This document shows positions 3,001-6,000 of a stretch of 64,000 nt of DNA, piece after piece. The stretch comes from an uncultured Candidatus Peribacteria bacterium (GTDB lineage Bacteria > Patescibacteriota > Gracilibacteria > RBG-16-42-10). The position numbers were made by a program. The DNA is taken from positions 62,001 to 126,000 of the forward strand of contig CAZERA010000002.1 of assembly GCA_964514565.1 (NCBI GenBank), in the 5' to 3' direction. The stretch's first letter is position 1, and each line of letters opens with the position of its first letter.

Positions 3001-6000
3001 GCTGAATAGCCCGGTGGGTAGGCATAGTGACTACAGGCAGATTGTAAATTGATTCAAATTCTTCAGCCTCAGTGACAGCTGTACCAGTCATACCGGCCAG
3101 CTTTTTGTAAAGTTTGAAGTAATTCTGAAAAGTAATAGTAGCCAGCGTCTTACTTTCTTGTTTCACATCTACATTTTCTTTTGCTTCCAAAGCTTGGTGT
3201 AGGCCCTCTGAAAAACGACGTCCAGGCATCATACGACCAGTAAACTCATCTACAATCACTACCTCACCATCTTTGACTACATAGTCACGATCCAGGGTAA
3301 ATAGAGCATGCGCACGCAATGCTTGTTCGATGTGATGCACTTCACTAAACCCAGCCTCAGTATAGATATTTTTGATCCCCATCAATCCTTCCATAGTAGC
3401 GATACCTTTTTCAGTCAAAGTTGCTGCCTTTTGCTTCTCATCTACTACATAATCCTTATCTTTCTCCAAACGAGGAATCAAGCGGCTGTAGTGTACATAT
3501 TTTGAAGTAGACTCTTGGCCAGGAGCCGAGATAATAAGCGGTGTACGAGCTTCATCGATCAAAATAGAATCCACTTCATCCACGATCGCATAGTGCAATG
3601 ATCGTTGCACAGCTTGATTAGGATCTTGCACCATATTGTCACGCAAGTAATCGAAACCAAACTCATTGTTGGTACCATAAGTAATATCACAAGCATAAGC
3701 CAACTTTCTCTGTTCTGGATCTACACCATGCACTACGACGCCTACGGTCAATCCTAAATAACGATATAGAATACCCATCCATTCCGCATCACGACGAGCC
3801 AAATAGTCATTGGTAGTCACTACATGCACCCCCATCCCTTCCAAAGCATTGAGGTAAACAGCTAATGTACTTACTAATGTTTTACCTTCACCAGTCTTCA
3901 TTTCAGCAATATTGCCGCGATGCATTACCATACCTCCTAGCAGCTGCACATCAAAAGGCACCATATTCCATTCTTTCTCTTGTCCAGACAAAACATACTT
4001 GGTACCTACTAAACGACGACAAGCATTTTTTACTACAGCAAAAGCTTCAGGCAAAATAGCATCCAAGCTCTCACCTTGTTTAATACGATCACGAAATTCT
4101 TCAGTCTTGCGGCTAATTTGCTCCTCAGTAAGCTGTTGAAATTTCTCTTCCCATTGATTTATTTTAGCCACTAGTGGCTTGATCTGACGCAGTTCTTTAG
4201 CTGTGACATCAGGAAAAATCGATTGCCATAATCCCATAGTTCGTTCCTTAAAGCCCATGAAGAGTAACAAGAAAAGTGGAAAGTGGAAAGTTGAGAGTGG
4301 AAAGTTAGGTGGAACGGGTTGTTTTTACGATTTGATTGAGCATCGCGTAGATTTGTTCAATTTCTGAGAGTAGATACTCCTGATTTATACTTAATAGGTT
4401 TGATTGATTAAGTAGAAAAAGCCAATATTTCGTTTCTCTAGCTTCTTTTAGAGCAATAGACATCTTACTCAAAAAGTCTCTCCTACTTTGTCCCTCAAGT
4501 ACTTCAGCAATATTAGCGCCAATACTAGTACCACTTTTAAGCAACTGGCGAGCTAAAACAAACTGGCGTTTTAGATCAAGTGTCTGCACAAACTTAATAA
4601 TGGCCAAAGCAAAATCAGTACTGCGATTAAAAACAATACTCTCTTTCATAAGTTCAAAGGTTAATCACCAATAAACTTACCAACCCAAAAATGAATTTTT
4701 CCTGCCCCCCCAAAAAAACTTTTCCCGAAGGGACCCCTTCGGGGCAATTTTCCACTTTCCACTTTCAACTTTTATGCAAAGCCTTCCAGGTCTCTTTCAT
4801 CGACAACCCCTCATCCCCTCCCAACACTTTTTCAATCATCGCCTTATCTGTCTCCCGAATAACACATGACTCATGAGACCGAACCAAACTCCAAGGATAT
4901 CCTTTCCCCTTATTGATTTGGTCTACCAAATAAGTCCACGATTGGTCAGGAATGACCTGGTCTAAAACCATTTCGATCCGAAGCAAGGTACTTTCACTAC
5001 GGTAGTAACAAAAGCCGATATTATAGTCGGGCAATAAGTCAGTAATCGGCGAATGTGTACGAAATACTGGTGAAAATGTATTAGGTAACAGGACCGCTTG
5101 GAAAAGATCCTGATCGGTAAAGTGTTTGAATTTCTTACCTGATTGACGTTCCAGCCAATGAACAAGATCTCTGCTGGCAGAACGGTCAATCACAGCAAAT
5201 ATTGGAGCTTGTTTCTTATAACTCTGTACTAAATACTCAACATATTCACCGACAAATTGCAGTTTTTTCTCTTGATCAAGCTCCTCCCATTGCCAACGCA
5301 CCAAACTACCATCGACCAACACCAAGTCAGACTTCTCTTCTTGAACAGCAAACGATAGTTCTAGCAAAGGAAACCTTAAAGCCCCCAATTCATCTTGCTC
5401 AGGAAAATCCTCAATCGTATTGATAACTTGTTCAGTGCCCAACTGATAGTTTGTTACCACCCTTGATAATGATAAAGCCTTGAGCTCAACACTACGATGG
5501 CGTGAAAGCTGAAGTGGTGAACCATCAGCTCCTACTACAGTGTATTGAGCACGATTTAGCTTAGCTATTGCCGGAACTACGTAGTTTGCCAAAGGTAACT
5601 TCTGTTGGTCAATCAGTGCCCAAGCCCGAACTAGACCATCTAGCTCTTGGCTCACTACTGATCGTTTTTTATCATATTGCACTTTTACCTTGTGGGCATA
5701 TTGCAATAACTGCGCTAAATCAGGCATGAAACACGTTAAGATTCACAACGTAGCAAAGCTTTTGCTAAAGCACTAGCGGCAATTGGCGGAGTGAAGGAAA
5801 GAATCAGTGATTTTTTGTCCTGTGAAAAAGAAACTTGTTGAGCCAATTTCATCAATTGGTTGTTGGTAGAAACTTCGTCTTTTACACATGCATACAGTTC
5901 CTGATCGGTTTTGGTTGTTTTAGCCATAATTTTATAGTCAATCACCAATGATAATTATACTTATTACCAAGCAGCAACAAGGTGAGTACTGGATATAGAG

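Follow-up and report, generated by a model that had tools for sequence, protein, structure and literature searches.

Several described systems resemble the locus considered here. Ssn is a proven case of a small, repeat-flanked gene that acts on transforming DNA; in Neisseria, SsnA cuts single-stranded DNA at its repeats and modulates transformation (PMC11893778). Competence in that genus is described as constitutive, and the excerpted account mentions no competence promoter on ssn (PMC11893778). For REP elements, different repeat classes are reported at orthologous loci of related strains (PMC3686654). Short intergenic runs of 7-mers near gene ends or starts, often in inverted pairs, are known from Beggiatoaceae, Xanthomonas and Nostoc, one family to a paper, and the excerpts of these papers mention no four-helix gene (PMC4679880, PMC4692102). 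The intervening sequence of Coxiella 23S rRNA has terminal inverted repeats, with heptamers beside its S23p ORF (PMC4990558). The cassette layout described below was found in the literature for this intervening sequence only, going by extracts of that paper (PMC4990558), and no report of heptamer cassettes wired to competence was found among open-licence papers, to which the search was confined. Avd, the accessory protein of diversity-generating retroelements (DGRs), is a pentamer, positively charged, that acts on nucleic acid (PMC6182149) and represents a family related to the four-helix proteins discussed here. The CRP-S/Sxy and ComX competence regulons include, in the excerpted accounts, the gene set comEC/rec2, comF, comM, radC and ssb (PMC1635313, PMC6560143).

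The locus lies in a 64,000-nucleotide stretch of DNA (the window) on contig C2 of an uncultured Candidatus Peribacteria bacterium (G000; 1.12 Mb, 93% complete). The class to which this genome belongs includes small genomes and TGA-recoded relatives, features that would fit the Patescibacteria. Positions 4238..4764 form the gap that separates secA (1658..4258, minus strand) from a weakly NurA-like nuclease gene (4765..5727, minus strand), both host genes; in G001, a genome of the same genus, the NurA-like gene directly adjoins secA. Read along the minus strand, the stop codon of the upstream gene is followed by an arm of heptamers, a GC-rich hairpin, a promoter-like box, a TANNNT hexamer, a gene for a four-helix-bundle protein, the inverted arm and then secA. 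The upstream arm (4745..4773, minus strand; TRF and inverted-repeat pairs) overlaps the stop codon of the NurA-like gene and is the reverse complement of the downstream arm (4272..4305, plus strand), which comprises about 4.7 copies of AAAGTGG (TRF and inverted-repeat pairs I2-I4), overlaps the stop codon of the four-helix gene and terminates just short of the secA start. The hairpin (4716..4751, inverted-repeat pair I5) and the upstream arm make up one 56-nt unit (approximately 4715-4771) that is dispersed in sister genomes. The putative competence box, here AATTCATTTTT, occupies 4687..4697 on the minus strand (family consensus WTTTCATWWTT), and a -10-type hexamer, TAAGTT, is recognised by its sequence at 4674..4679 on the same strand, 24 nt upstream of the four-helix start codon. 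By its profile scores, which exceed the curated cut-offs, the 114-residue product of this gene (4305..4649, minus strand) is a member of TIGR02436 (103.6 bits, cut-off 24) and of PF05635 (86.5 bits, cut-off 33.8; E 1.7e-24), and the closest solved relative is PDB 2RLD, with five chains (E 2e-23). Elsewhere in the window are gene-less arms, two of the GAGGTAA family (34786..34812, before a start codon, and 47206..47235) and one with the unit CCCTCTG (52541..52560) that by inspection probably belongs to the AGAGGTC family.

How widespread are such repeats? With gaps of at least 30 nt between our own gene calls, and 15 matches in 21 positions taken as a pass, 113 of 588 gaps in G000 pass at period 7. 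The corresponding counts are 0-9 for periods 4-6 and 8-13, 55 for period 14, the harmonic, and 0-4 in five dinucleotide shuffles. A stricter cut-off gives 107 matches in 109 kb of gaps and four in 687 kb of gene interiors, and TRF returns 155 rows at period 7 and at most 80 at any other period. The intergenic period-7 excess reported in an earlier note on this DNA is therefore borne out. That note treated the arrays as free tandem repeats, an interpretation we abandon. Among neighbouring array pairs in G000, 27 of 36 consist of a purine-rich arm and then its reverse complement, with fixed polarity, around a core of 15-70 nt in which a small GC hairpin is often present. The repeats form the arms, of about five heptamers, of small cassettes, most copies of which carry no gene.

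The arms are short and uniform, with a median of 4.6-4.7 units in three genomes, and 11 of 144 reach at least six units. The detector imposes a floor near four units; counted without that floor, the GAGGTAA family, the commonest, gives 18, 49 and 11 runs of three, four and five units, respectively, with a peak at four. The arms of this family, including the one on its own four-helix cassette, have one variant in common at the third unit from site to site. A query from the window locus, counted as a whole, gives 42 matches in G001, 46 in the sister genome G002 and five in G000; 40 candidates were scored in each of G001 and G002, most of them on the 56-nt unit or the arms, and the best among those scored reach 93% identity over 56 nt. 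Position-specific variants and a dispersed arm-plus-hairpin unit imply that the arrays are copied cassette ends, and the abundance of this unit in G001 and G002 but not in G000 implies that different families expanded in different lineages. The arrangement extends beyond this genome. At 30 four-helix loci of the class, inverted flanks (at least 16 of 20 bases matching) occur at 24, compared to one of 30 for mismatched pairs, and period 7 is seen at 23, compared to 0-4 at periods 5, 6, 8, 9 and 10.

The families had been described as at least seven and unrelated. Their multiplicity stands; complete unrelatedness does not, because they have in common a loose purine-A-purine-T phase (6.2 bits against at most 4.8 in 40 letter-permuted sets, the former value being inflated by near-duplicate units). 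A strict R-Y-N-R-R consensus for all families was rejected, with 21 of 38 fitting and 61% expected. In the DNA read, no matching four-helix cassette was seen for three abundant G000 families or for the dominant G001 families. No insertion junction or target duplication of the cassettes was found, nor, among the matches listed, any joint across the window cassette in contigs of four DNA runs; in a check of the kind applied to MITEs, the G001 sites carry other elements rather than empty targets.

The cassette genes of G000 are six four-helix genes, three small GIY-YIG genes (a count that leaves out two matches in long ORFs) and one RAYT-like gene. The six four-helix proteins are 21-51% identical and fall, in a quick tree, into two subfamilies, each with members from G008, of the same order, and G028, of another family. 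One G008 member matches bAvd (PF22296) below the cut-off. The G000 RAYT matches NF047646 below the cut-off and has a premature stop, its G001 ortholog being an open frame of 172 residues, and no heptamer arms were seen in the flanks of the G000 gene, so no active mobilising enzyme is identified. Clear inverted hairpins stand at one of the three small GIY-YIG genes; this Ssn-like feature concerns elements that neighbour the heptamer cassettes, not the heptamer arms.

Are the sites themselves conserved? Comparison was made with G001 (median protein identity 78%, 800 kb read) and with G005, from another genus of the same family (749 kb read). In 150 syntenic gaps of G000 and G001, arrays are present in both genomes at 19, in G000 only at 12, in G001 only at 20 and in neither at 99, giving an odds ratio of 7.8 (p 2.5e-6), or 7.7 when stratified by gene orientation and 4.7 for gaps of at least 80 nt. 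With G005 there is no site sharing (78 gaps, odds ratio 1.0). The earlier claim that repeats keep their sites holds within the genus and fails across genera; the figures given with that claim agree with the comparison to G001. At several shared sites place and polarity agree, and in eight of the 19 the arrays lie against the same gene boundary. The unit differs at all 19; since random pairing predicts about 10% matches, or approximately two, the swap of families is not significant, and it need not be treated as a separate effect, being no more than the different genome-wide repertoires (near-disjoint among G000, G001 and G005) predict. A search for concealed same-family remnants where sites are shared gave 1 of 31 and 0 of 39, which is not above chance.

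The G000 arrays coincide with Ssn-type hairpins of G001 (17 of 31 against 11 of 119), which makes the shared sites mosaic hot spots for several repeat types, and within G001 heptamer arms occur in 36 of 63 hairpin gaps and 39 of 332 other gaps. The swap is a product of lineage-specific bursts in which different arm families landed in the same mosaic hot spots, and the sharing of sites could arise from elements that target old elements or from inserts being tolerated only in some gaps. At the window locus the gene is absent from G001, where both arm remnants, of the same family as in G000, are kept around an Ssn-type hairpin; G005 and G007 have another repeat family there. The absence of four-helix genes from syntenic sites, as had been proposed, is only partly upheld: at the four G001 sites covered, of six, two genes are missing, one is conserved and one has decayed in place.

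The motif WWTTCATWWWT had been noted before repeat-associated genes. We confirm it for the six four-helix, three GIY-YIG and RAYT-like genes, in all cases with the true start 42-50 nt downstream. It makes up the upstream half of a promoter, TTTCAT-N11-TANNNT; in all six G000 four-helix genes TTCAT is followed by TANNNT after a fixed 11 nt. It is not a special signature of the repeat genes. The pattern TTCAT-N11-TANNNT precedes 25 of 1025 G000 genes and these include comEC, a separate gene for the ComEC nuclease domain, comF, comM, radC and one of three ssb genes, which the strict form of the motif and the distance window used had hidden. A spacing of 11 is found before 17 G000 genes, as opposed to 0-6 at other spacings, the signal being weak in G001 (8 against 1-7).

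Across the family, the motif precedes comM at 42-45 nt in all seven genomes that have the locus, compared to one of 23 outside the family, at 75 nt; it precedes radC in eight of eight genomes, comEC in five of six and the short, tail-less ssb in seven of seven, with none of 13 for other ssb genes. The full motif stands before dprA in one of six genomes, was found directly upstream of none of six pilB-like loci in five genomes, and is absent from eight of 27 four-helix genes of the family. Neither dprA nor pilB was found in G000; for pilB an assembly gap is likely, because the G001 stretch that carries it has no G000 counterpart and falls where one contig ends and another begins. In G005, DUF559, ORF6N, KilA-N, DUF3800 and antitoxin genes have the box as well. 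A search of nine box loci against Rfam gave one tRNA only.

That the motif was derived from the very genes it describes is an objection that can be answered. A matrix built from 22 distinct sites at competence genes of G001-G007, chosen by the core pattern, was used to rank 1026 G000 genes (the 1025 calls plus one GIY-YIG gene, with the RAYT start corrected). All ten cassette genes rank between 1 and 23, the window four-helix gene being 13th, and six competence genes between 3 and 33; ruvA, at 497, was dropped as a regulon member. The shared promoter stands before comEC, comF, comM, radC and the competence ssb, and not before SOS genes, the distribution by which a competence regulon is recognised. 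Judged from these sequences, the motif is very probably the host's competence-regulon promoter, with the cassette genes likewise under competence control. Two other interpretations of the box were discarded. One takes it for an ordinary -35, but housekeeping-type -10 boxes have TTGAC at 17-18 nt, not at 11 (small counts). The other takes it for the antisense start codon of a leader ORF, which fits several chance matches and leaves the fixed -10 spacing unexplained.

In more distant genomes other boxes take its place. In G008 this is a direct repeat, TTAAT-N6-TTAAT-N10-TANNNT, with 50 matches against three for the reversed pattern. Among 30 loci read, those with the repeat upstream include comM, comF, recA, yraN, three four-helix genes and three of RAYT type; the repeat also stands before an alkyl-transferase-like gene, many non-coding repeats, what on inspection is a probable dprA start at a contig end, and the single OmpR-family regulator gene of that genome. 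Five of the eight G008 four-helix genes examined are without it. A third box, in G028 (14 matches against one), precedes the gene for the comEC nuclease domain, dprA, yraN, three four-helix genes and a GIY-YIG gene. We caution that part of this overlap between four-helix and competence genes is by construction, because it was a comparison of those promoters that first revealed the G008 and G028 boxes. All three boxes are represented in each of the two deep four-helix subfamilies, so that in the quick tree the box follows the host and not the protein clade. Of 21 loci outside the family, only the four in G008 and G028 have a box in clear common with comM, dprA or radC; no clear shared box was seen at the other 17, and many of those cassettes lie inside operons.

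Which regulator might act at these sites? A PafBC-type sigma adaptation would need a WYL-domain regulator, and none of the eight family genomes has a WYL-domain activator. The G008 direct repeat has OmpR/CiaR-type geometry, two hexamers 11 nt apart and 10 nt before the -10, as in the partial account of CiaR to which we refer, and does so at the regulator gene itself. In G000 a single half-site stands at 11 nt, and both candidate regulators lack the promoter; on this basis any choice of regulator there is a guess. The box would be an activator site at the position of a -35, probably for an OmpR-family response regulator, and we consider the chances evenly balanced that this class activates both the uptake and the cassette genes.

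We now consider how the cassette might work. The preferred explanation, which we regard as probable, is that we are dealing with selfish repeat cassettes whose expression accompanies DNA uptake; we infer the expression, the regulator and the insertion enzyme. Each would consist of an arm of about five 7-nt units, a promoter, a small gene and the inverted arm, most copies being gene-less, and the genes would encode four-helix, Ssn-type GIY-YIG or RAYT proteins, joined in relatives by DUF559, ORF6N and antitoxins. Since the cassette genes carry the host competence promoter, they are most likely switched on with comEC, comF, comM, radC and the competence SSB, at the time when single-stranded DNA would be entering the cell. 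This suggests that incoming DNA is what the repeats and the orphan protein act on or travel with. By analogy with Avd and the five chains of 2RLD, the four-helix protein might form a ring of five that binds a five-heptamer arm as a single strand, a suggestion that could go either way. The repeats would move or be overwritten during transformation by RecA/ComM recombination between flanks, assisted by RAYT or Ssn cutting at neighbouring hairpins; that arms are gained and overwritten in this manner, with RAYT or Ssn making the cuts, we rate a little below even. If existing elements were the preferred landing sites, a site would stay occupied with the expanding family of a lineage replacing the old one. 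The most complete form of the proposal is a guild of genetic parasites, each defined by its repeats, in which five-membered four-helix rings read five-heptamer arms on incoming single-stranded DNA, together with Ssn, RAYT, DUF559 and ORF6N, the competence promoter being captured repeatedly and transformation providing for spread and for the overwriting of rival families, with no transposase of their own. We advance it tentatively, as a conjecture with rather more against it than for it.

The alternative that survives best is a domesticated transformation filter, in which the repeats are lineage barcodes and competence-induced host proteins cut, protect or limit incoming DNA according to family, as SsnA does; turnover of families would then separate gene pools. 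The near-disjoint repertoires, the retention in place of two cassettes and the RAYT between G000 and G001, and the SsnA precedent (PMC11893778, in part) fit this scheme. It has difficulty with cassette genes that are lost and decaying, with 2 to 10 per genome in the family, and with several dominant families that have no cognate gene. We think it unlikely, and note that it is compatible with the selfish-cassette explanation.

An RNA-level element has less to commend it. Here the arms would pair in the transcript and be excised by RNase III, in the manner of rRNA intervening sequences, or would tune translation at starts, and the promoter would be incidental. The window arms do fold into a long stem (z -3.6). 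Arrays also lie close to stop codons, with 52 of 64 no more than 25 nt away, and in many cases (24 of 80) close to start codons. Terminal repeats and heptamers characterise the Coxiella intervening sequence (PMC4990558) and heptamers occur before start codons in Beggiatoaceae (PMC4679880), on the partial accounts of both. What this scheme leaves unexplained is why unrelated cassette genes in three lineages each carry the local competence box, and we consider it improbable as the primary explanation; RNA-level pairing may still account for the tolerance of inserts between cistrons.

The box might instead mark a DNA-damage or general stress regulon, given the repair roles of ssb and radC and the presence of recA and the alkyl-transferase-like gene behind the G008 box. 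In G000, however, umuD, lexA, uvrA and recA rank 247, 280, 855 and 860 of 1026, only the tail-less gene among the ssb genes is included, comEC, comF and comM serve uptake and recombination, and the set matches the Haemophilus and pneumococcal competence regulons as excerpted (PMC1635313, PMC6560143), so a stress regulon is very unlikely. Local replication slippage, with arrays persisting where tolerated, has been proposed for bacterial heptamer excess (PMC4692102, in part) and would suit the one long perfect array in G000, but is largely refuted, and barely credible, in view of the inverted pairing with fixed polarity, the narrow length range, the recurrence of one variant at a fixed unit position from site to site and the 56-nt unit copied to many sites.

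Should the selfish-cassette explanation be correct, a very common orphan protein family, and the long-noted heptamer excess in bacteria, gain a testable physiological context. If the expression of selfish cassettes is timed to coincide with DNA uptake, transformation becomes a route of spread for small elements that lack a transposase, and if the four-helix proteins bind as suggested each ring-plus-arm pair is a candidate sequence-specific single-strand binder. The guild, if real, would account for the unexplained 7-base repeat excess across bacteria. The boxes, and a candidate regulator, also define candidate competence regulons for three lineages of uncultured ultra-small bacteria.

It remains to place the cassette among known systems. 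REP units are GTAG-type palindromes. The units here are periodic arms, and the G000 RAYT is broken and not bracketed by them; the likeness to REP/RAYT lies in dispersed intergenic repeats tied to a single-copy small gene, with a RAYT-like gene present (PMC3686654, in part). With Ssn and its NTS-SRM repeats the cassette shares a small stand-alone gene flanked by its own dispersed repeat (PMC11893778, in part), and Ssn-type genes and hairpins occur in these genomes, sharing gaps with heptamer arms. It differs from Ssn in that the arms are tandem heptamers, the main gene is a four-helix gene with no known catalytic site, and a competence promoter is present. The S23p protein of the Coxiella intervening sequence belongs to the same family, and an inverted-repeat stem encloses the ORF here too; the window cassette, however, lies outside rRNA, between protein genes, with its own promoter and more than 100 gene-less arms in the genome. 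A diversity-generating retroelement was rejected, as no reverse transcriptase (PF00078) matched in G000, at 93% completeness, and the neighbours are host genes. Relative to published heptamers, many families are found here and they are linked to cassettes; relative to known competence regulons, the box sequence differs with each lineage, repeat cassettes are among the members and the regulator is a candidate. The cassette works like REP/RAYT or Ssn and is a member of neither, nor is it an rRNA intervening sequence or a diversity-generating retroelement.

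Three genes of the source genome (contigs C1 to C4) that are preceded by the competence box, the promoter motif found before comM, comEC, comF and radC, are candidates for new competence genes. They encode a lamin-tail and cohesin protein (C1:70576-72072), an M23 peptidase (C4:163-1620) and a DUF1877 protein (C3:91644-92129). The first is also boxed in G001, of the same genus, and in G005, of the same family; an M23 gene is likewise boxed in G008, of the same order, and the DUF1877 gene in G001. Three ssb paralogs occur in this 1.1-Mb genome (C1:126891, C1:366979 and C2:26396) and only one, the short ssb, carries the box.

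An OmpR-family regulator gene is located at C1:144603-145274, with orthologs at loci L314, L317 and L319, and comM lies within a few kb of the OmpR-family gene in five genomes of the family. The gap 5′ of this comM-linked gene holds a TTTCAT-N5-TTTAAT repeat, conserved within the genus and lacking a -10 element. Counterparts of the source genome's other regulator in G005 and G007, both of the same family, display a box of the G008 type.

The RAYT-like gene of the source genome (C4:77175-77582; L109:1175-1582) contains a premature stop; its same-site counterpart in G001 is an open frame. At window positions 9683-12460 a gene for a 462-residue membrane protein is followed by a similar gene, apparently split into frames of 165 and 292 residues.

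Approximately 45 kb of G001 genes, including pilB, radA-like and dnaA-like genes assigned by inspection, have no counterpart in the source genome. In the source genome this stretch would join the far end of C2 to the beginning of C1, and its absence is likely an assembly gap. A GGCTCAT array (C1:478453-478687; L102:954-1188) runs across an assembly gap and is long and almost perfect, whereas heptamer arms elsewhere in this genome are short and degenerate.

In G008 (loci L280-L306) and G005 (L120, L173, L175, L177, L188 and L189) the competence box often has non-coding G-rich repeats 5-30 nt to its 3′ side. These repeats consist of GGG runs, some flanking a hairpin, belong to at least three families and are placed within repeat mosaics. 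No such arrangement was found in the source genome, and an Rfam search of nine box loci gave no match to the repeats, its one hit being a tRNA. These units may be cassettes, normally a small boxed gene between inverted heptamer arms, that have lost the gene and kept the promoter, or they may be competence-induced small RNAs. The G tracts behind the box are reminiscent of the pilE G4 of Neisseria with its cis RNA.
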